Below are positions 3,244-22,605 of a stretch of DNA of 64,000 bases, one piece after another. Source of the DNA: a virus; the IMG/VR virus record IMGVR_UViG_3300050014_000619; one strand, given 5' to 3'. Within the stretch, counting starts at the first letter, position 1; each line of letters begins with the position of its first letter. Position numbers and translations under genes: made by a program. The notes beneath the pieces were generated by a model. It was not told the DNA's origin, did not search any database, and saw only the letters and a program-made list of their open reading frames with translations.

Positions 3244-5037
3244 ATGTCAGAACCAGTTTTTATTGTTCATTGTTTAAGAGTTCGCAAGACATCCTTATAT
3301 CAGTTAAGATTTCCAATTAACGACCAACTTACTAATAGAATCAAAGAATTGCCACACGCTTCAAGAAGATGGGTTGCATTAGAATATGCATGGGAAGTTA
3401 ATAGTGCAGGACTGCTCAGTTTAATTAAAAGATACAAAGGCTCAAATAAAATTCATTTTGATTTTGGTAATGACGAAAGTAAAAAAATTTTTATTAATCA
3501 AATTAAAAAGGTTGAAGCTGCCGAAGAAGAAAAACGTAAATTTATAGCCGATCTTAATATTAAAAAGGAGCATTGGGTTAAATATAAACAGGAGTTAGAA
3601 GCAACATACGAGAAGTATAGCGATCAGTTACATGCATTGTTAAAACCAGAGATAAAACTTTATCCTCACCAAATTCAAGCAGCCTTATTTGCAAATGCTA
3701 CACGTAATACGCTGATCTCTCACGAGATGGGACTCGGAAAAACTGCCGTTTCCATACTTTATGTTGAAATGAATAAATTTGAAAAAGTAATTGTAGTTAC
3801 TCCTAATTCATTAAAATTTAACTACTATAATGAAATTGAAAAATTTACAAATAGTAATGCACACATTATTGGTTGGAGAAAAAATAAATGTGGTATTCAG
3901 GATGCTAAGTATGTGATTGTTAATTATGATTTCTTTAATCCAAGTAGTAAAGATAAGTTTTTAAAGAAGTGGCAAAAACTAAAGATTGAAGAAATTGATG
4001 CAGTTATTTGTGACGAAAGCCAGAAGTTAAAAAATACAAAAGCAAACACATATAAAAATTTCAACAGAACATTCAATAAACTTTTATTTAAAAGTGGTAA
4101 AATCAGCAAGATTTTCCTCTCTGGTACTCCTGCACCGAATAGAGCATATGAACTTTATACTGTCCTGAACCAGATATCTCCTGCAGATTTTGCAACAAAA
4201 GAATATTTTTATGAATATTATTGTGGTATGATTTATGACCATGATAGTGGTTGGGGTTATGTTACAAATAGTGCAGAAGCAAAACTTGAAGAACTTTATC
4301 ATAAAGCAGCACCATATACTCACAGAAAACGTAAATTCGAAGTATTGACCGATCTTCCTGATAAAATTTATCAGAAGATTATGTTTGAAATGGATGATGA
4401 CGAATATGCAGTTTATGATGAAATTGAAGAAGGTGTTGCAAATGAATTTGTTGCACATCCAAATGGAAATCCGTTGACAACGATGTTGCGATTAAGACAA
4501 TACACAGCTTCATTAAAGATTAAGCATGTTATTGAATTGGTTGAAAATATTCTTGAAACAGGCGAAAAGGTTGTAATTGTTGATTATTTTAAAGATGCAT
4601 TATATGAATTGAAAGAAAAACTTGGTGATGTTGCTGCACTTCATACTGGCGATCAAAAGGATGATGAAAGAGCAGAGATTGTAAAGAAATTTCAAGACCC
4701 AAATAGTGATTTAAAAGTATTTTTAGGTACAGTACAGACATGTGGATACGGATTAACCCTTACAGCAGCCAGCAAATTGTTTTTTCTGACACTTCCTTAT
4801 TCGGTAGGTGAATATGATCAGGTAAGTGACAGACTTCATAGGATTGGTCAAAAAGCAGTTGTAAACATATATCCTTTGATGTTCAGGGATACTATTGATG
4901 ATTATGTATTTAGTTCAATTGAAAATAAAAGAAAAGAAATCGTGAAAGTGATTGATAATGAAGATTACAAATCTGATGTCAGCGAATCAGTGCTGAGTGA
5001 GGTTATTGCTAAAATTAAAGAAAAACATGGGAAGTGA
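3244..5037 (+). CDS. SNF2-family helicase with N-terminal HARP-like domain
   Basis: LYPHQ, EMGLGKT, DESQ, LSGTP, GYGLTLT, QVSDRLHRIGQ motifs. Confidence 0.9.
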   Translation: MSEPVFIVHCLRVRKTSLYQLRFPINDQLTNRIKELPHASRRWVALEYAWEVNSAGLLSLIKRYKGSNKIHFDFGNDESKKIFINQIKKVEAAEEEKRKFIADLNIKKEHWVKYKQELEATYEKYSDQLHALLKPEIKLYPHQIQAALFANATRNTLISHEMGLGKTAVSILYVEMNKFEKVIVVTPNSLKFNYYNEIEKFTNSNAHIIGWRKNKCGIQDAKYVIVNYDFFNPSSKDKFLKKWQKLKIEEIDAVICDESQKLKNTKANTYKNFNRTFNKLLFKSGKISKIFLSGTPAPNRAYELYTVLNQISPADFATKEYFYEYYCGMIYDHDSGWGYVTNSAEAKLEELYHKAAPYTHRKRKFEVLTDLPDKIYQKIMFEMDDDEYAVYDEIEEGVANEFVAHPNGNPLTTMLRLRQYTASLKIKHVIELVENILETGEKVVIVDYFKDALYELKEKLGDVAALHTGDQKDDERAEIVKKFQDPNSDLKVFLGTVQTCGYGLTLTAASKLFFLTLPYSVGEYDQVSDRLHRIGQKAVVNIYPLMFRDTIDDYVFSSIENKRKEIVKVIDNEDYKSDVSESVLSEVIAKIKEKHGK

Positions 5038-12489: not shown

Positions 12490-15400
12490 ATGGTTAAACT
12501 AAAAATATTCGAATTATACAACAATGCCGATGGAAATGACGATATGCTTTCTGATATCGGTAATGTTGGCATGGAAGTAAGACAAGGCATGTGGACATTT
12601 ATGCCTGATAGAGTTGGCGATAATAGTCCAGCAATTCAAGAAGACGAAAATTTTAAATCTCCACAGGTAGACCAAGGTGTGTTAAAAAATCACGCATATG
12701 CCAGAGAATTAGCATATACTTTTGCAAGAAAAATTGGCATACAAATAACAAAAGATTTGGGTGGCGGTGGAAATGGACGTGCATTCGAAATTAGTCCAGA
12801 AGTTGTGCTAAAATTAACTACCGATGTCAGTGAAGTAGATGCTGCAATTAAAACGCTTAGAGAAGAACCAAAACATCTTGCTGAGATTTATGGAATTTAT
12901 AAACTCATTGATACTGAGAAAAATGCATCGTTATATGCCATACTTCAAGAGCACATTCAAGAAAAACCATTGGAAAAATTCAGGGAATATAATAAAATAA
13001 TAAATGCTATTATGCCAAGTGGTCTGGGACTTGAAGATTTTTTTGGTTTAATGAGATTACCTAAAAAATTTAATTATAGTGATTTAGCTGAAAAAGCAAA
13101 ATTACTTCTTACAGATACTCCAGAAGCGAACATTAATGAACAAGATAGAAAGGAAGCATATAATTATCTTATTGCATTACTTGATATAAGACAGGAATTA
13201 ATTGATTATGGTATTAAATCAACTGACTATTGGACTATTGCAAATCTTGGATATGATAAAGGTATATTAAAATATTTTGATGTCGGTGGATATGTTGCAC
13301 CAAAACCAGAAATTCCAAAAGATCATGTGGTAACGTTGCCTGAAGATGGTAGCGCAAAATTTAGCACAGATAATGGTATTGGTCAAGATGATGAACCACC
13401 ATATGATAACAATGACACTTCACCCTCAATAGAAAATGATCTCAATGCAAATTTAAATATGCGTGAAGATTTGGAATACAATCACGTTAGTGATGCAACA
13501 CAAGATCAATACGAGCTTGATGAAAGACAATTATCTTCAATGGCTGGAAGCAGTACTGTTGAAGTTAAACAGAAATGCAGATTAGCTGGAAATGGCAATA
13601 CTTCAACCGCTTGCAATCAGGGTGATATAAGAAATCTGAATATCAAGCCATTGCATGAAAGTGCAAGTCTTAATATACCCGAAAATCTCAGTGGATATGA
13701 TTCACTTAAAATAATGAATGGTGATCAGACTGTAGGTGAGGTTGGAATTATGGACAGAGGTGTACATGGTGGAAATCATTATATTGCAATTGACAAAATC
13801 TTTATTAATAAGGAATTTAGGGGTAACGATTATGCAAATGATGCAATGAAATTGATTTTTGCTTATGCTGATAAAAATAATTTAATTGTTACCTTGACAC
13901 CAGATAATATCTGGGGTGCAAGTGTACCAAAGTTAAAAGCATGGTATAAATCACTGGGATTTATTGAAAATAAAGGCAAGAAAAAAGATTTCCAGACTAT
14001 GCAGTTAATGTATAGATTACCAAAAACTCCTACAAATCTCAATGAAGACATTGACCCTAAAACAATTAATACAAACAGAAGGGCAATATATTCCGTAATT
14101 ACTGGCAAAAGAAAATTGGCATTTGGTGAAGTTGATAAGCCATTAGGACAGGCAATTGAGAAAAGAGGTTTTGGTATAATACCAGTGAGAATGACTTCAC
14201 GTCATGGTATGATGAGCATAGTTTATAATAAAGATTCATATGAAAATGCAAGAAAACTTTATGAAATAGCTAAGACGCATGGTGATTATCTTACAGATAA
14301 TACGGCAAGTGAAGCTCGTGAAATAGGTAGATTATTAGAATATAAAGAAGAAAGTATTGCAGAATATATAAAACAGAAATATGGTGACAGAGCATTATCT
14401 ACACATGAAAAATCACCAGAAGACTTCGATGATCTTTCTGAAGATATGGATTTTTGGGATTTGAATGATTTAAATGAAGAGAACTTTCCAGCATTCGAAA
14501 AACAAATCGAAAAAGATGAAATTACTCACGGTCTTGATAAAAAAGTTCTTTATGAACAAGATGATTTTAAAGTATGTGTAGTTAATGGCGATGCTGTCAG
14601 AGGTAATGGTTTTGATGAATGGGTAGATGGTGGTCATCATTATGTAGATGCTGATTTACCGAAAGACGAACAAAAATACGCTAAATTTATTCCAGAGGAT
14701 GAAATTTGGATTGATGACGTATTTTTATCAAAACCAAATGATATGGCAGCAATTATACTTCATGAAAAACTCGAAAGATATTTAATGAAGAATTATGGTA
14801 TTGAATACGAAAATGCACACACAGATTATGCAAATAAAGCAGAAGTTGTCTTCAGAAAATTAGTTAAGGATGGTACTGGCTCACTTATAAGCCAGAAAAT
14901 TTTCGATGCATTTGTAAATAAATTTATACAAGACCATTCCGATAAAAAAGTTCATGAAGGAGTAGCAGATGTAGCTGCAGATAAACAGTTTGGTATACAA
15001 CAACCACATGCGGGTTTTGAAGACAAATTCAACAGGGAAGAAAATGAAGAAGATGTAGTCTTTGCTGGTGATACTGATGGTATGATAATAATAAGAAATC
15101 CCAAATCATGGAAAAACATATATGGCTATGTTAGGGGAATTATTGACCCAGAAGGTAATCTTTATATTCAACAAAAACCCGTAGGCATTCACTTTGAAAT
15201 GCTTGAGGAATTGAATAAATTAGGACTTGTTGACAATGAAGCAGATTGGGATGAAAAATTACCAACGAACTTTCTTACAGTACAACGATATTTAAGGTCG
15301 AATAAAATTTTACTCGGTGAATCAAACTCACCAAGATATCCAGAACCAAGAGACCCAAATTCTATGTTTTGGAGCAAAATTCCACCAGTTGAGGTAGCTA

Positions 15401-16815
15401 TCCCATATTATCAGGCTTTCTTAGATAAGGCTAAAAAGAAAAATCCCAGCATGGATTTTATTAATGAGATAATAAGTACATATAGGAAACAGCATGAGAA
15501 TGATGAAACGTTTGGTGGTAATGATTTTAATGAAAATTTAAAAAATTCTGATAATCATAATGATTTATATGTAGAAAATGTTAACTTTGCAAAAAATGAT
15601 TCGATGAATGAGAATGAAATAATGTCATTAGATGATTTGCCTTTCAAAGATGATGTTGAACGTCAAGGCGGTAAGGTATATAGTGTTGGTGGTGCAGTAA
15701 GGGATAAATTTTTAGGTAAAGAATCTAAGGACTTGGATGTTATTGTTACTGGCATTCCACTTGATAAATTGGAGAGAATCATATCGAGATATGGTGTTGT
15801 TAACTCAGTTGGTAAATCATATGGTGTGTTGAAGTTCAAGCCACGTGGTGCTCCTGAAGACAGTGAAGATATTGATATTGTTATTCCACGTACAGATACC
15901 CCAACAGGCGGTGGTGGATATCAGGATTTTGATATTCAATCAGATCATACCATACCACTTGAAAAAGATTTGGAACGTAGGGACTTTACCATTAATGCAA
16001 TGGCAAGAGATAGAAATGGCGAAATAATTGACCCTTATGGTGGTCAGGAAGACCTGAAGAATAAAATTATTCGTGCAGTTAATCCCGAAGCATTTAGTGA
16101 TGACCCACTGAGAATGTTACGTGCTGTGCAATTTGCATGCCGTTTCGGTTTTACTATTGAGCCACACACAATGAAAATGATCAAAGACAATGTTGCGGAA
16201 ATCAAACGTATTTCTGCTGAAAGATACTTAATTGAATTTGATAAGATCATTAAAAAGGGCAATATAGTAATGGGTGTTGAACTACTTATGGAAACAGGCT
16301 TGTTTTCACAGATATTTAATGCACAGCCAAAAAATGTTACTCCTTTATTTGCCAAAGTTAAGACAATGGCTGAATTTCTTTATTTGCTTATGACTGGTTC
16401 TGTAAATAATCCTGCAGAATTCTATTTGGAACATTTTGCAAGTGATGAAGATGCAAAAAGAAGTAAGAACTACAAAGAGATTCGTGCACTTGAAACAGGA
16501 TTTGAAAGCGGTGAAGCAACAAACTTAATCGAAGCACGTTCAATTGCACATAATATGTATCTTATATTTCCACAAGTGTTGGAAAGCCAGATATTACCAA
16601 ACATAATCAGGGTTGCATCGCAGGAATTACTTCAAGGTAAATATCCTAAGACTGTGAATGAATTGGCGGTTAATGGTAATGATTTAATGGAACTTGGTTT
16701 ACAAGGTAAAGCAGTTGGTGATATGCAAAAATCATTATTATTGAAGATTTATTCAAATAAAGTTATGAATAATAAAGAAGATTTACTATCTTTGGCGGGT
16801 CAAAATGGAAAATAA
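12490..16815 (+). CDS. cca: Multidomain polyprotein: kinase-like, GNAT acetyltransferase, unknown, zincin-like, unknown, C-terminal class II tRNA nucleotidyltransferase (CCA-adding/poly(A) polymerase family)
   Basis: LGGGGNG/VLK/D...N/FDVG; FRGNDYA...WYKSLGF; LHEKLER...AH; VGGAVRD...DLD, RRDFTINAMA, DDPLRMLR, SAER. Confidence 0.85.
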   Translation: MVKLKIFELYNNADGNDDMLSDIGNVGMEVRQGMWTFMPDRVGDNSPAIQEDENFKSPQVDQGVLKNHAYARELAYTFARKIGIQITKDLGGGGNGRAFEISPEVVLKLTTDVSEVDAAIKTLREEPKHLAEIYGIYKLIDTEKNASLYAILQEHIQEKPLEKFREYNKIINAIMPSGLGLEDFFGLMRLPKKFNYSDLAEKAKLLLTDTPEANINEQDRKEAYNYLIALLDIRQELIDYGIKSTDYWTIANLGYDKGILKYFDVGGYVAPKPEIPKDHVVTLPEDGSAKFSTDNGIGQDDEPPYDNNDTSPSIENDLNANLNMREDLEYNHVSDATQDQYELDERQLSSMAGSSTVEVKQKCRLAGNGNTSTACNQGDIRNLNIKPLHESASLNIPENLSGYDSLKIMNGDQTVGEVGIMDRGVHGGNHYIAIDKIFINKEFRGNDYANDAMKLIFAYADKNNLIVTLTPDNIWGASVPKLKAWYKSLGFIENKGKKKDFQTMQLMYRLPKTPTNLNEDIDPKTINTNRRAIYSVITGKRKLAFGEVDKPLGQAIEKRGFGIIPVRMTSRHGMMSIVYNKDSYENARKLYEIAKTHGDYLTDNTASEAREIGRLLEYKEESIAEYIKQKYGDRALSTHEKSPEDFDDLSEDMDFWDLNDLNEENFPAFEKQIEKDEITHGLDKKVLYEQDDFKVCVVNGDAVRGNGFDEWVDGGHHYVDADLPKDEQKYAKFIPEDEIWIDDVFLSKPNDMAAIILHEKLERYLMKNYGIEYENAHTDYANKAEVVFRKLVKDGTGSLISQKIFDAFVNKFIQDHSDKKVHEGVADVAADKQFGIQQPHAGFEDKFNREENEEDVVFAGDTDGMIIIRNPKSWKNIYGYVRGIIDPEGNLYIQQKPVGIHFEMLEELNKLGLVDNEADWDEKLPTNFLTVQRYLRSNKILLGESNSPRYPEPRDPNSMFWSKIPPVEVAIPYYQAFLDKAKKKNPSMDFINEIISTYRKQHENDETFGGNDFNENLKNSDNHNDLYVENVNFAKNDSMNENEIMSLDDLPFKDDVERQGGKVYSVGGAVRDKFLGKESKDLDVIVTGIPLDKLERIISRYGVVNSVGKSYGVLKFKPRGAPEDSEDIDIVIPRTDTPTGGGGYQDFDIQSDHTIPLEKDLERRDFTINAMARDRNGEIIDPYGGQEDLKNKIIRAVNPEAFSDDPLRMLRAVQFACRFGFTIEPHTMKMIKDNVAEIKRISAERYLIEFDKIIKKGNIVMGVELLMETGLFSQIFNAQPKNVTPLFAKVKTMAEFLYLLMTGSVNNPAEFYLEHFASDEDAKRSKNYKEIRALETGFESGEATNLIEARSIAHNMYLIFPQVLESQILPNIIRVASQELLQGKYPKTVNELAVNGNDLMELGLQGKAVGDMQKSLLLKIYSNKVMNNKEDLLSLAGQNGK
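15582..15589 (+). promoter_or_regulatory. Possible internal -7 box upstream of the CCA domain
   Basis: TAACTTTG 14 nt before an in-frame ATG at 15604; -33 element is poor. Confidence 0.4.
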
Positions 16816-17746
16816 TAGAAAAGAAATATTGATTTGTAATGAATGTAATAAAGAATTTAATTCATTAAAAGGATTGAAAAATCATAATAGATACGGATGT
16901 AGTACCAAATTACATTCAAATTATTTTAAATATTGCCCAATATGTAATGAAATAATACATTATGAAAGTAAAACTAAATATGATTATGCAATTAAAAATG
17001 ATTCAAAATGCCATAAATGTGGTAATATTGGTAGAGAAGTGTCTGAAAACACAAAAATTAAAACATCTAAAACATTAAAAGAAAAATATGATAATGGCAC
17101 ACTAATTCCAAACATGATAGGCGCACATTCAAATGAATCAAGAAAAAAACAATCTGCAAAGAGAAAGAATTGTAAGTTAACTGAATCGCATAAATTAAAT
17201 ATTTCGATTGGTTTAAATAAATCTGAAAATTTTAAAATATCCGTACATTCAAAAGAAAGAGGTAATAAAATTTCAAAAAAATTAACAAATAAAAAATTTT
17301 CAAAAGAACATATCATTAAACTTTCTGAATCACATGCAAATGTTGCGAACGAAAATAATCCGTTTTATAATAAAAGTCATACTAATGAAGCTAAGAATAA
17401 AATGAGAATTAGTGCCATTGAAAGAATTAGATTAAATAAGTTTGAAAATAATCAAATAGTGCCGTTTTATAACAAAAGAGGTTGTGAATATTTTAATAAT
17501 CTAATGAAAATCAATAATTGTTTCATACAACACGCTGAAAATGGTGGTGAATTTTATATTAAGAAATTAGGATATTTTGTTGATGGATATGACGAAAAAA
17601 ACAATATTGTTTATGAATGGGATGAAAAACGTCATTTTCAAAAAGGTAAATTAATTGAAAGGGATATTATTAGAGAAAATGAAATTACCAATTTACTAAA
17701 ATGTGCTTTTATTAGAATTAAAGAAAGTGAGGTAAATAATGATTAA
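16805..17746 (+). CDS. Putative homing endonuclease: Zn fingers, NUMOD3 repeats, C-terminal PD-(D/E)xK/Vsr-like nuclease
   Basis: CNEC...H, CPIC, CHKC; HSNESRKKQS, HTNEAKNKMR; YFVDGYD...YEWDE. Confidence 0.78.
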   Translation: MENNRKEILICNECNKEFNSLKGLKNHNRYGCSTKLHSNYFKYCPICNEIIHYESKTKYDYAIKNDSKCHKCGNIGREVSENTKIKTSKTLKEKYDNGTLIPNMIGAHSNESRKKQSAKRKNCKLTESHKLNISIGLNKSENFKISVHSKERGNKISKKLTNKKFSKEHIIKLSESHANVANENNPFYNKSHTNEAKNKMRISAIERIRLNKFENNQIVPFYNKRGCEYFNNLMKINNCFIQHAENGGEFYIKKLGYFVDGYDEKNNIVYEWDEKRHFQKGKLIERDIIRENEITNLLKCAFIRIKESEVNND

Positions 17747-19049: not shown

Positions 19050-19193
19050 ATGAAAAGCAAAGACAAAACAAAAACAGTTACACCAATGGATGTAGCAAGA
19101 TTTGTTGGTGCTGAAAAAGACTATCAAGATGTTTTAAATAAGAATAGGGGTGCTTTGGTTGAAAATTTTTATAGCTTATTGAAAAAATTATGA
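19050..19193 (+). CDS. Small hypothetical protein (47 aa), not in the ORF track
   Basis: MKSKDKTKTVTPMDVARF...SLLKKL*; ATGA overlap with the 19190 gene; GTATTTAT at 19041. Confidence 0.5.
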   Translation: MKSKDKTKTVTPMDVARFVGAEKDYQDVLNKNRGALVENFYSLLKKL

Positions 19194-19573
19194 GTAATAT
19201 TTCTTATAGTGCAGTAGTTCTTGATGAAAGTTCAAGAAACCGATTAATCAGAAGATTCGAGTCATTAATACCCGAAGGCTGGGAAGTTGTTGCACATCAT
19301 GCCACAATAAAGTTGGGCGAACTTGACCCAAATGAAAAATGGATGATTAATGAAGAAATTACATTGAGTGTAAATGATTTTGCAATGGATGATAAGGTTA
19401 TGGCAGTTGGTGTTAGTGGCTCTGAAAGCCACAATGCCAAGCCACATATAACCATTGCTGTAAATCGACAAGCGGGTGGTAAACCAATGATGTCGAATAA
19501 ATTAATTGACTGGAAAAAAATAAGAGTTCCCTTGGTGATAAGAGGAATCGTGACTGAAGTTGAATATAAGTAA
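19190..19573 (+). CDS. 2H phosphoesterase (tRNA-ligase cyclic phosphodiesterase-like)
   Basis: Two HxT motifs, HHATI and PHITI; KPMMSN. Confidence 0.82.
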   Translation: MSNISYSAVVLDESSRNRLIRRFESLIPEGWEVVAHHATIKLGELDPNEKWMINEEITLSVNDFAMDDKVMAVGVSGSESHNAKPHITIAVNRQAGGKPMMSNKLIDWKKIRVPLVIRGIVTEVEYK

Positions 19574-19574
19574 A

Positions 19575-20171
19575 ATGAGTAATGATGAGTATGTTGCAAA
19601 AAAACAGCAAAAAGATTTTGAAGAAGGTAAAAAACCACAAAAATTATTCGCAGATTTAATGCAGAAGAACGGGTTTCGCTGTTATAGCGCAACCAGTTAT
19701 CAAGATAAATATGAACATTGGGATATCCTGACTGTTGAAGACCTTGGAAATGGTACGAAAGTTTTTGAACGTTCGGACATAAAAGGTCTAAAGAACTGTG
19801 TAAAAGAAGGTTTCGAATGGATGGAATTACAAACAATCGATGGAAGAATGGGTTGGTTGTATTCGGAATTTACAGATAATATAATATTTGAAATTGAAGA
19901 TTGCTTTCTTTTCATAAAAAGAGCAGAATTACTTCCAATCATTGTAGCAAATGTAGCAAAGATGGACAAATTGGATGAAGAAGATGGGGAACGTCCACCA
20001 GTAGTTCATGTGATAAAAGACGGTCTTAAATATTATCAGAGGTACTGTAGAATATTGTGGGGTAATACAGATATAACTGTTATGTCACCATTTACGGATT
20101 TTCAGCATTTAATTTATATGAAACTATATAAAGCAGACGGTAAAATAGAAAAATTTAATAGAAAACAATGA
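19575..20171 (+). CDS. PD-(D/E)xK-like nuclease-fold protein
   Basis: QDKYEHWD...DIKG...WMEL...GWLY; probable ATG at 19575. Confidence 0.5.
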   Translation: MSNDEYVAKKQQKDFEEGKKPQKLFADLMQKNGFRCYSATSYQDKYEHWDILTVEDLGNGTKVFERSDIKGLKNCVKEGFEWMELQTIDGRMGWLYSEFTDNIIFEIEDCFLFIKRAELLPIIVANVAKMDKLDEEDGERPPVVHVIKDGLKYYQRYCRILWGNTDITVMSPFTDFQHLIYMKLYKADGKIEKFNRKQ

Positions 20172-20191
20172 AAAGATTGGCAGTATTTGAT
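20168..20191 (+). pseudogene. Orphaned original 5' end (MKRLAVFD) of the HAD gene
   Basis: ATGA-coupled to the upstream stop; peptide matches IKRLSVFD at 21277-21300; ends exactly at the LAGLIDADG stop codon. Confidence 0.75.
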
Positions 20192-21201
20192 TATATGTAC
20201 TTAAAAGAATATCCTTTACAATGTTTTCTATCCCCCCTAGTAACTCTTTGTATACTTTCATATTTTACATTAATTTTATTGGATGCTTCATGTATATTAT
20301 TAAATGTTTTAATATAATTATTTGATATATAATCATACATTTCTATTTTACGTAAATTTGGGGTTCTATCATACGTTCCTATTTTATATTCTTTAAGTGT
20401 TTGGAATAAATTATATTTTCTTGTAAGTCTAAGATTTTCGGAATCTTCGTAAATATTATTTTTTAATATTAAAAGGTCTTTATATGAATTATATTTTAGT
20501 ACTACAAGCCTATTATTATTTGAAGAATATTTGGTGATACTTACTTTAGTGTTTGATAAACCATATAAATTAAAACTTTTCTTTATCTCAGTAATTAAAT
20601 TTTCTGAACCGATAATTGAAAAACATAATGCACCATTCTTTCTCTTTTTTTCTTTATTAATTGATCCATCCCCATCGAAAACACCACGTATGAAGTGCCA
20701 AAAATATTCTTGAGGTATGTCAGGCATTATACAATTAAATGACTTATTTGAGTGAACACCTAATTTATTGAGATCATTAACAATTTCTTTAGATGCTATT
20801 TGTAGAGAATAGCGTGTATATGTTTTATTGGTTCTTTTATCAAAGACATTATATTTGGCTAATTTATGCTCGGATTTAATTTCCCTTTTTAACATATCAA
20901 CTAACTCGATGTCTCTTGAAGTTAAAACTAACTTATATCGGTTATCAACATATCCATCAGATATAATCAAGCCCAATAAATATGCTTTATTTTTAGCATT
21001 AATAATTTTGAAAAATTCGGTATTAATTTTATATCTTCTATTATTACCGTCATGTGATTTATTGTTTATTGTGTATCCATGCTTTTTTAATTGATATTTA
21101 ATGGTTGAATACGAAACATTAATAATTTTTGAAATTTTTGTTATTGTATAATTTTCATTAAAATAATAATGAGCAATTTGATTAATATCATATTTATTCA
21201 T
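20191..21201 (-). mobile_element. LAGLIDADG homing endonuclease (two motifs, N-terminal HTH, C-terminal NUMOD1) inserted into the HAD gene
   Basis: YLLGLIISDG and FIRGVFDGDG; TFNNIHEAS...GYSFKY; likely start MNKYD at 21201. Confidence 0.85.
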
Positions 21202-21208
21202 ATCTTTG
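21177..21208 (+). promoter_or_regulatory. Consensus Bacteroidota-type promoter for the HAD gene, antisense within the endonuclease 5' end
   Basis: TTTG(21177-80)-N20-TATCTTTG(21201-08). Confidence 0.65.
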
Positions 21209-21224
21209 TATTTATAATAAATAC
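21208..21224. promoter_or_regulatory. Palindromic pair of GTATTTAT motifs (bidirectional)
   Basis: GTATTTAT-A-ATAAATAC between the divergent endonuclease and HAD starts. Confidence 0.65.
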
Positions 21225-21249
21225 TTATAATTTCGAATAATATAACCTT

Positions 21250-21846
21250 ATGACTACGGAAAAACACAAAAATACAATTAAACGCCTCAGTGTCTTTGAT
21301 CTGGATGCGACAATTCTTGACACTCCAACACCAGAAGAAGGAAAAAAAATATGGGAAAAATATTACAAAAAGCCATTTTCATATAAGGGTTGGTGGAGTA
21401 AGCCAGAGAGCCTTGATACTGAAGTATTCGATATTAAACCTTTTCCAGCAGTTCTGGCAGAACTTAATAAAGAAAAAGCAACACCTGACACTGCTGTTAT
21501 TATCTTAACATCAAGAGTGGAAAGATTACGTCCACAGGTTGAGAACGTGCTTAAACTCAATAATATTTCCGTAGATGATGTTCTATTGAAAAATAGTAAT
21601 GAAGATAAGGGTGATATTATTTTAAAAATCTCAGTTTATAATCCAGACCTTCGAGAAATCGTAGTGTATGATGACTTTATGGAAAAAAATGAAGCTAAGA
21701 TTCAGGAATATACGAAAATCATCGGTGAATTATCACCAGAGATTCAATATACTTTGTATTATGTTGACAACGGTAGGATTACTTTACTGGAATCCACTAA
21801 TATAATATTGAAAATGATATCAGATGAAATTCGAAAATTAATTTAA
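21250..21846 (+). CDS. HAD-family phosphatase, Swiss-Army-Knife RNA-repair type
   Basis: VFDLDAT...TP, GWW, LTSR, LLK, VYDD motifs. Confidence 0.8.
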   Translation: MTTEKHKNTIKRLSVFDLDATILDTPTPEEGKKIWEKYYKKPFSYKGWWSKPESLDTEVFDIKPFPAVLAELNKEKATPDTAVIILTSRVERLRPQVENVLKLNNISVDDVLLKNSNEDKGDIILKISVYNPDLREIVVYDDFMEKNEAKIQEYTKIIGELSPEIQYTLYYVDNGRITLLESTNIILKMISDEIRKLI

Positions 21847-21870: not shown

Positions 21871-22605
21871 ATGGGACTATGCTCAAATAAGGAAAAATTT
21901 ATTATTGCTGCACAAATAAAGCATAATAGCAAATATGACTATTCCAAAGTAGTATATGTTGGTAACAAAGATAAAATAACAATTATTTGTCCTAAACATG
22001 GTGAATTTTCACAGAGACCAAATGATCATTTAACTGGATATGGCTGTAAGAAATGCCAATACGAAAAAATCTCAAAAGAAAATAAATTTACAAATAATAT
22101 TTTTATTGAAAAGGCAAATAAAAAACATAATAATACATATGATTATTCATTAGTTAAATATAATGGATATGAAAATAAAATTACTATTATTTGTAAAAAG
22201 CATGGTGAGTTTAATCAATCGCCACATGCACATTTGGGTGGCGCAGGATGCCCTAAATGTAAAGAATCTTTTGGTGAGAAAAAAATTGCAGAAATCTTAT
22301 TAAAATATAATATTCAATTTGAAAGAGAGAAAACATTTAAAGATTTAAAATACAGAGCTAACTTATATTATGATTTTTATTTACCAAATCATAAAGTATT
22401 TATTGAATATCATGGAATACAACATTTTGCGCCAGTAAAATTTTTTGGCGGTAAAAATGCGCTTATTGAAACAAGAAAACGTGATATAATTAAATTGAAG
22501 TATGCTATAAATAATAATTATTTGTTAATTTCATTATATAATATTCCAATAAAACATATGGATGAATTATTAACGAAAGCATTAAACTATAAATCAATAA
22601 TATGA
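21871..22605 (+). CDS. Putative homing endonuclease (DUF723-like Zn repeats plus Vsr/PD-(D/E)xK)
   Basis: Two YDYS...ICxKHGEF...HL.G.GC.KC repeats; YDFYLP...IEYHG.QH. Confidence 0.8.
   Translation: MGLCSNKEKFIIAAQIKHNSKYDYSKVVYVGNKDKITIICPKHGEFSQRPNDHLTGYGCKKCQYEKISKENKFTNNIFIEKANKKHNNTYDYSLVKYNGYENKITIICKKHGEFNQSPHAHLGGAGCPKCKESFGEKKIAEILLKYNIQFEREKTFKDLKYRANLYYDFYLPNHKVFIEYHGIQHFAPVKFFGGKNALIETRKRDIIKLKYAINNNYLLISLYNIPIKHMDELLTKALNYKSII

Follow-up and report, generated by a model that had tools for sequence, protein, structure and literature searches.

A probable free-standing LAGLIDADG homing cassette in a jumbo phage that repairs its target HAD phosphatase gene by 5' replacement

Introduction

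Fungal mitochondria harbor mORFs, free-standing LAGLIDADG or GIY-YIG endonuclease genes that lie inside coding genes, are not spliced out, and make gene hybrids, as in atp6 of Allomyces macrogynus and in atp6, atp9, cox2, and nad3 of Glomus (PMC3630166). They carry a foreign copy of one gene end and leave the native end stranded, still matching an empty relative; they replace the 3' end and leave the host promoter in place (PMC3630166). In phage T4, MobA and homR of gene 60 make up a homing cassette with neither intron nor intein, in which a sense-direction HNH nickase gene travels with a diverged homologous segment that spans the nick site (67 to 81% identity) and gives the downstream ORF a new start, the left junction varies, endonuclease-less scars occur, and the topoisomerase gene is split into two working subunits (10.1101/2022.08.31.505936). 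The T4 seg and mob genes exemplify intronless homing by free-standing enzymes, with flanking co-conversion, embedded downstream promoters, and, in segD, antisense orientation; these enzymes cut hundreds to thousands of bases away and strand no gene start (PMC2988022). Finally, HEG islands contain gene remnants beside homing endonucleases that have been proposed as recombination substrates, but the islands are multi-kilobase and bracketed by two endonucleases, with no replacement start described in the consulted part of that source (PMC10055350).

Here, we describe a phage locus in which an antisense LAGLIDADG gene interrupts a gene for a HAD-type phosphatase. As in mORFs, a free-standing endonuclease gene lies inside a coding gene without splicing, the gene end is duplicated on both sides of the endonuclease, the stranded copy is the resident one, matching an empty relative, and the working copy is foreign. 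Unlike in mORFs, the 5' end (N-terminus) has been replaced, the enzyme is antisense, and the host is a phage. The locus shares with MobA/homR the diverged segment with a new downstream start, the variable left junction, and the scars, and differs in its LAGLIDADG enzyme, its HAD target, a dead stub of 8 codons, one whole rebuilt protein, and the lack of a bypass. It resembles seg and mob in flanking co-conversion, embedded downstream promoters, and antisense orientation, but here a gene start is stranded and the predicted cut and the insertion coincide. On these comparisons, the cassette appears to work like the mORF hybrids and MobA/homR while being a member of neither. Our literature search found no paper on a HAD-targeting endonuclease family, which is not proof of absence.

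Results

Genomic context of the locus

The window, i.e., the whole stretch of 64,000 nucleotides analyzed, comes from a linear virus record of 83 kb (IMGVR_UViG_3300050014_000619) that is about 25% complete and includes baseplate and RuvC genes. Its relatives reach 320 to 350 kb, and the window is a jumbo-phage fragment. DNA nearly identical to it comes from peat metagenomes, and GenBank phages give distant matches only. Bacteroidota are the probable hosts, judging from A-rich starts without Shine-Dalgarno sequences and from TAnnTTTG elements before several genes.

The HAD gene belongs to an operon that also encodes a CCA-type nucleotidyltransferase and a 2H phosphoesterase (Table 1) and is likely a tRNA end-healing module; this operon is conserved in nearly all relatives. 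The ORF between the 2H and HAD genes varies among relatives, where unrelated ORFs of similar size fill the same slot. It has no Pfam or PHROG match, although a PD-(D/E)XK-like nuclease pattern can be discerned by eye. The operon is a hotspot of mobile nucleases: free-standing endonuclease-like genes encode a zinc-finger/NUMOD3 protein (16805-17746) and a DUF723 protein (21871-22605), the latter with its own GTATTTAT promoter and present only in some relatives.

Assembly error does not explain the locus: a contig of another study matches the window base for base across 20072-21364, the IMG/VR locus L001 is identical over 20162-21410, and the junctions are real. All features named in the preliminary description of this DNA were found at the positions it gave.

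Table 1. Coordinates of the features of the HAD locus (window positions unless a locus is named)
Feature	Position	Strand	Evidence or remark
CCA-type nucleotidyltransferase, within a 1441-aa multi-domain protein	12490-16815		
2H phosphoesterase	19190-19573		
Upstream ORF, 198 aa	19575-20171	+	Stop coupled to stub; varies among relatives; no family match
Stranded resident HAD start (stub), 8 codons, MKRLAVFD, through first Asp of DxD	20168-20191	+	L333 identity, profile, translation
LAGLIDADG homing endonuclease gene, 336 aa from ATG 21201	20191-21201	-	Pfam PF14528, PF22083, PF13936; alignment; model
Putative extent of mobile cassette: endonuclease, promoters, X, donor tract	20192-21386	.	Right end is the crossover, codons 36-38
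Candidate Bacteroidota host-sigma promoter for HAD	21177-21208	+	-33 TTTG (21177-21180) within endonuclease codons; -7 TATCTTTG (21201-21208) overlaps endonuclease start
Phage promoter motif GTATTTAT facing HAD	21208-21215	+	6/15 close loci; palindrome 21208-21224
Phage promoter motif GTATTTAT facing endonuclease	21217-21224	-	14/15 close loci; same palindrome
Site X, degenerate out-of-frame third target copy	21237-21262, core 21249-21258 (Y-D-Y-G)	+	Conserved position and sequence in family
Chimeric HAD phosphatase ORF, 198 aa from ATG 21250	21250-21846	+	Resident body from about 21388; Pfam, fold
Donor-derived replacement 5' tract, codons 1-36 (empty-allele numbering), DxD intact	21277-21384	+	Informative sites
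L-A-V-F antisense endonuclease ends	L083 about 4000-4030; L328 about 3500-3530; L329		

The endonuclease and its target

In the endonuclease, an HTH at the N-terminus is followed by both LAGLIDADG motifs in intact form and a NUMOD-like domain at the C-terminus. The GTG start at 21267 reported by the ORF finder was rejected, as homologues begin at ATG 21201. Its structure model (pLDDT 90) has the tandem alpha-beta-beta-alpha-beta-beta-alpha fold; the best-matching folds are I-Tsp061I, bI3, and I-AniI, and the top Foldseek matches are LAGLIDADG enzymes (E = 5e-8). Residues D85 and D181 are invariant in 31 endonuclease sequences. In all 14 close loci, defined by an endonuclease at least 59% identical, both motifs are intact and the gene is under purifying selection (dN/dS 0.18 to 0.30). 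Site-specific cleavage of an element-less allele is predicted, with indirect signs in the clustering of junctions and the recoding described below. Among GTDB genomes, only endonuclease relatives of 25 to 40% identity were found.

The HAD ORF matches Pfam HAD_SAK_1 with E = 1e-4, which is below the cut-off, and its model matches the folds of class C acid phosphatase and Pnkp1; a PDB sequence search returned nothing useful. The Rossmannoid fold is accompanied by DxD (motif I), T/S (II), K (III), and DD (IV); D8, D10, K111, and D133 are invariant, and T78, S79, and D132 nearly so. From the HAD_SAK_1 and Pnkp1 matches and the CCA-type and 2H neighbors, we predict a phosphatase with a role in RNA repair. 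Purifying selection acts on the HAD body (pN 0.11 versus pS 0.63), and the in-frame ATG and DxD are kept in 13 of 13 analyzed cassette loci. These values agree with the proposal that selection keeps the HAD gene, from which L329, where HAD has been lost, departs.

A stranded resident start

The stub ATG overlaps the TGA (20169-20171) of the upstream ORF in an ATGA coupling, and the final T of the stub doubles as the closing base of the endonuclease stop codon, an antisense TAA; reading on from the stub gives a dead ORF of 49 codons. The stub is identical in 22 of 24 nt to L333, the closest empty allele, which has the same upstream gene order and no endonuclease, and it matches the profile of empty-allele starts (P = 0.002). 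By comparison, the working start IKRLSVFD (21277-21300) shares 14 of 24 nt with L333 and 15 of 24 with the stub. In a HAD-body tree made in a quick search mode, the window pairs with L333 as its sister (support 99), and the surrounding clade holds seven empty MKRL-type alleles (support 97). Together with the match to L333, this placement identifies the stub as the resident start, as first proposed. The expected MKRL-type start of empty alleles was likewise found, with the first Asp at position 8 in 94 of 120 HAD homologues, and long starts accompany the endonuclease or its scars. Four DNA runs were searched for a near-identical empty allele, and none showed a junction lacking the cassette; contigs from these runs break near 20168 and 21364-21386, which is no evidence of such an allele.

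The preliminary description placed the break exactly at the catalytic Asp, which holds for the window, but the junction varies over codons 7 to 10 among loci (stubs in L005, L083, L328, and L331; scars in L170 and L194). Stubs are present in the window and those four loci, and in L086 by eye; their type agrees with the body clade in 7 of 7 cases. No stub is seen in the majority of close cassette loci (L004, L323 to L325, L327, L330, and L332), where the endonuclease gene abuts the upstream gene.

A foreign 5' tract

The claim of a recoded eight-codon start that restores the peptide needed revision. Synonymous changes do occur in codons 3 to 7, but they form part of a donor tract, foreign and about 36 codons long, and only 6 of the 8 residues are restored. 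Informative sites split 41:5 in favor of L334 in codons 2 to 37 and 31:104 in codons 38 to 170, which places a crossover near 21385 (P = 1e-15). Over codons 8 to 37, identity between the window and L334 is about 88%, against only 57% in the body; from codon 38 on, the window follows L333 (77% identity). The window and L001 part only after 21410, with five differences in the next 50 bases. The cassette is identical among strains with different flanks, and contigs from DNA runs, which mix strains, also show a conserved cassette against a differing flank. Given the foreign tract and the fact that the nearest relatives of the endonuclease sit with another HAD clade than the window body, the cassette looks like a cross-clade transfer.

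Across the family, the 5' tract travels with the endonuclease only weakly (codons 2 to 7, rho 0.30, P = 0.04; codons 8 to 36, rho 0.17, not significant), indicating that the tract is variable in length and reshuffled. HAD codons 13 to 36 are mosaic also in L190, L210, and L214, which have no endonuclease; L190 and L210 are 92% identical in the body, 100% in codons 2 to 12, and 51% in codons 13 to 36. Such patterns could result either from conversion without inheritance of the endonuclease or from diversification of a substrate loop. In L334 (2980-3030), HAD has a donor-type start with no ATG and would begin at a GTG within the 2H gene or at ATA/ATT.

Respelling of codons 3 to 7

We compared 13 cassette and 6 scar alleles with 36 empty alleles. 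In codons 3 to 7, mismatches average 7.5 in cassette and scar alleles and 3.6 in empty ones (P = 2e-5); in codons 8 to 13, the two groups do not differ (P = 0.18). Leu4 is CTN in 18 of 19 cassette or scar alleles and of the TTR type, with a T first, in 29 of 36 empty alleles; the wobble base of codon 6 is other than A in 18 of 19 and A in 29 of 36, respectively. The replacement starts share ancestry, and the Fisher values therefore overstate independence. Four different CTN codons are used at Leu4, against the AT-rich bias of a genome that prefers TTA. GC3 of codons 2 to 10 is 0.32 in cassette and scar alleles and 0.14 in empty ones, with 0.20 in the body of both. In the window itself, the reported GC-richness of the new start is modest (9 versus 7 G+C in 24 nt), although CGC, CTC, and GTC are rare here. 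The replacement start of L216 scores like an empty allele. The overall pattern fits selection on the DNA against recognition by the enzyme and would confer immunity to re-cutting, with the MobA precedent that a diverged homologous segment need not alone give immunity: there, a bypass insert protects, and homR polymorphisms alone did not block nicking (10.1101/2022.08.31.505936).

The cassette family

The cassette loci were found through the endonuclease, and their counts are not population frequencies. In 12 of the 14 close loci the endonuclease gene lies antisense directly before HAD; one (L006/L012) has it about 4.8 kb upstream, and the last is L329. The same arrangement recurs in two short-form loci and five distant ones (40 to 51% identity). 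The short class (L216, L335; about 270 aa, without the NUMOD tail) occupies the same site. In L087 (3001-4418), a 41%-identical endonuclease gene is upstream of HAD in the same orientation, not antisense. On the 349-kb contig of L012/L199, a 60%-identical endonuclease lies between two parts of a large multi-domain gene; a decayed X is retained there, and Leu4 of HAD is CTT.

Cassette alleles occupy scattered positions on the HAD tree, with 13 changes, at least 5 of them forced by well-supported branches. Endonuclease similarity correlates with HAD-body similarity (rho 0.63), suggesting that much of the inheritance is vertical or among close kin. In the clade of L083, L328, and L329, the last four codons and the stop of the endonuclease gene are the antisense of the target L-A-V-F codons. 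By sequence comparison, this C-terminus is captured from the target gene in one event, a hint that short homology between the 3' end of the enzyme gene and the target guides the left join.

Site X and scars

A third, degenerate target copy, site X, which the preliminary description had overlooked together with the scars, is found by the target profile at the same place in most family loci, including those where it is non-coding, and lies 14 to 40 nt past the endonuclease promoter in most of them. The window holds a single exact copy, which is rather decayed (P = 0.059, compared with P = 0.001 in L005, L324, and L328); the clearest X, in L335, joins an almost perfect left half of the target to a right half that is A-rich and specific to the element. 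The ATG of the long HAD start (MTTEKH) lies within X. X is probably an older stub. More speculatively, it may now be an uncleavable operator, by analogy with I-TevI, which has a target-like site near its late promoter (PMC2988022).

Among the scars, L194 retains the stub, 17 nt of the endonuclease gene, the promoters, X, and the donor start; L181 retains a longer endonuclease fragment; and in L170, L002, L179, and L184 the start is joined directly to X. L002 and L334 do not count as true empty alleles with long starts, L002 carrying X plus a respelled start and L334 a respelled donor-type start.

Promoters

The motif GTATTTAT occurs 28 times versus 7.4 expected, nearly always oriented with the genes, and 15 to 65 nt before many starts; we regard it as a real phage promoter motif that presumably is active, perhaps of a late class, judging from the genes downstream of it. 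At this locus it forms a palindrome that had been read as serving both directions. The copy facing the endonuclease is conserved in nearly all close loci, but the one facing HAD is conserved in a minority (Table 1), and only a subset of loci, the window included, have two candidate HAD promoters, from which the gene may be expressed early and late, as proposed before. In the host-type promoter, the -7 element is present in 13 of 15 and the -33 element, which lies inside conserved endonuclease codons, in 12 of 15 close loci. The consensus promoter claimed earlier is accordingly backed by conservation across loci, but not by the pattern as such: TTTG-N19-21-TAnnTTTG occurs 4 times in the window versus 3.2 expected. 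A sigma-70 promoter scan gave chance-level results. The candidate promoters are carried by the element, as first proposed, and the general design appears to be a phage promoter driving the endonuclease and a host-type promoter driving HAD.

Discussion

Proposed mechanism

We consider it quite probable that this is a free-standing homing cassette that cuts at the DxD codons and repairs its target by 5' replacement. The enzyme would be expressed antisense to HAD from a phage promoter of its own and, during co-infection, would cut cassette-less phage DNA at or next to the HAD DxD codons. Double-strand-break repair would copy the cassette from the donor, with the right crossover in conserved downstream HAD sequence (here the K-G-W-W codons), giving the recipient the first 36 codons of the donor, a gain shown, at the level of sequence, by the chimerism of the gene. 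The left join would form at the start codons of the recipient, probably via short homology with the donor stub or the endonuclease 3' end, leaving the old start stranded. The donor tract keeps DxD, while its synonymous codons 3 to 7 would spoil the left half of the site. Since the 5' end is replaced, the cassette needs a promoter and a start codon of its own, and its host-type promoter and in-frame ATG would replace the lost operon coupling.

A further reading, which we advance only tentatively and think rather doubtful, treats the target as two half-sites. The replacement start would keep the right half and have a respelled, immune left half, whereas X, next to the endonuclease promoter, would hold the left half attached to a foreign right half, as an operator that is bound but uncut. 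HAD would also take its start codon from X, which would offer repair a second point of entry, one that yields immune endonuclease-less alleles such as L170, L002, L179, and L184. If true, the cassette would be a LAGLIDADG drive that regulates itself, needs no splicing, and is assembled from one stub of its target after another.

Alternative explanations

The locus might instead reflect ordinary intronless homing, with a cut in codons 10 to 36 or in a neighboring gene beside a naturally resistant HAD allele; the stub and X would then be by-products of sloppy left repair, and codons 3 to 7 would differ by descent. The many cassette loci without a stub, the mosaic codons 13 to 36 of empty alleles (L190 versus L210), and the remote cutting by T4 free-standing enzymes (PMC2988022) would all be at home in such a scheme. 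What makes it unlikely, though worth some weight, is that the stub ends, the departure point of X, and the rejoining point of the replacement all fall at codons 7 to 10, that cassette-specific differences concentrate in codons 3 to 7, and that rare codons are retained there despite a body GC3 of 0.20.

We give a slim chance to a local tandem duplication of the HAD start, with neutral insertion of the endonuclease between the copies and drift of the second copy in place. L170, where a stub and a second start lie 45 nt apart with no endonuclease, has the look of such a duplication, which may even be the remote origin of X. In the window, however, it is the working copy that diverges, with 88% identity to an allele that shares only 57% in the body; this contradicts drift in place here and leaves it possible for the ancestral cassette only.

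Introns and inteins typically insert at catalytic codons, and the position alone would suit an unrecognized intron with an antisense endonuclease, whose splicing joins stub and body. Yet only 48 non-coding nt lie between the two ATGs, no Rfam intron family matches up to E = 10, no length-conserving excision has group I or group II ends, protein length changes in each of the 18 in-frame excisions whose ends are group I-like, most loci lack any 5' exon, and each of the 13 analyzed cassette loci provides the downstream copy with an in-frame ATG of its own. Splicing is very unlikely, to the point of deserving next to no weight, and the earlier view of a splicing-free invasion at the DxD codons stands. 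[quoted passage not shown]

Implications

The general strategy of the homing cassette is not new; what this case adds is the antisense LAGLIDADG enzyme, the element-borne promoters, a mapped foreign tract, the respelling statistics, the scars, and X. For annotation, it matters that the 5' segments and long N-termini of these HAD genes come from the element and confound gene trees. With intact cassettes, empty alleles, stubs, and scars available from many phages, the target is predictable to about 25 bp, and the enzyme is a possible new meganuclease with a predicted site. The cassette can be seen as a natural counterpart of cleave-and-rescue drives and, beside introns and inteins, as a third route by which a homing endonuclease can occupy a catalytic codon, namely, by replacing the gene start together with a promoter.
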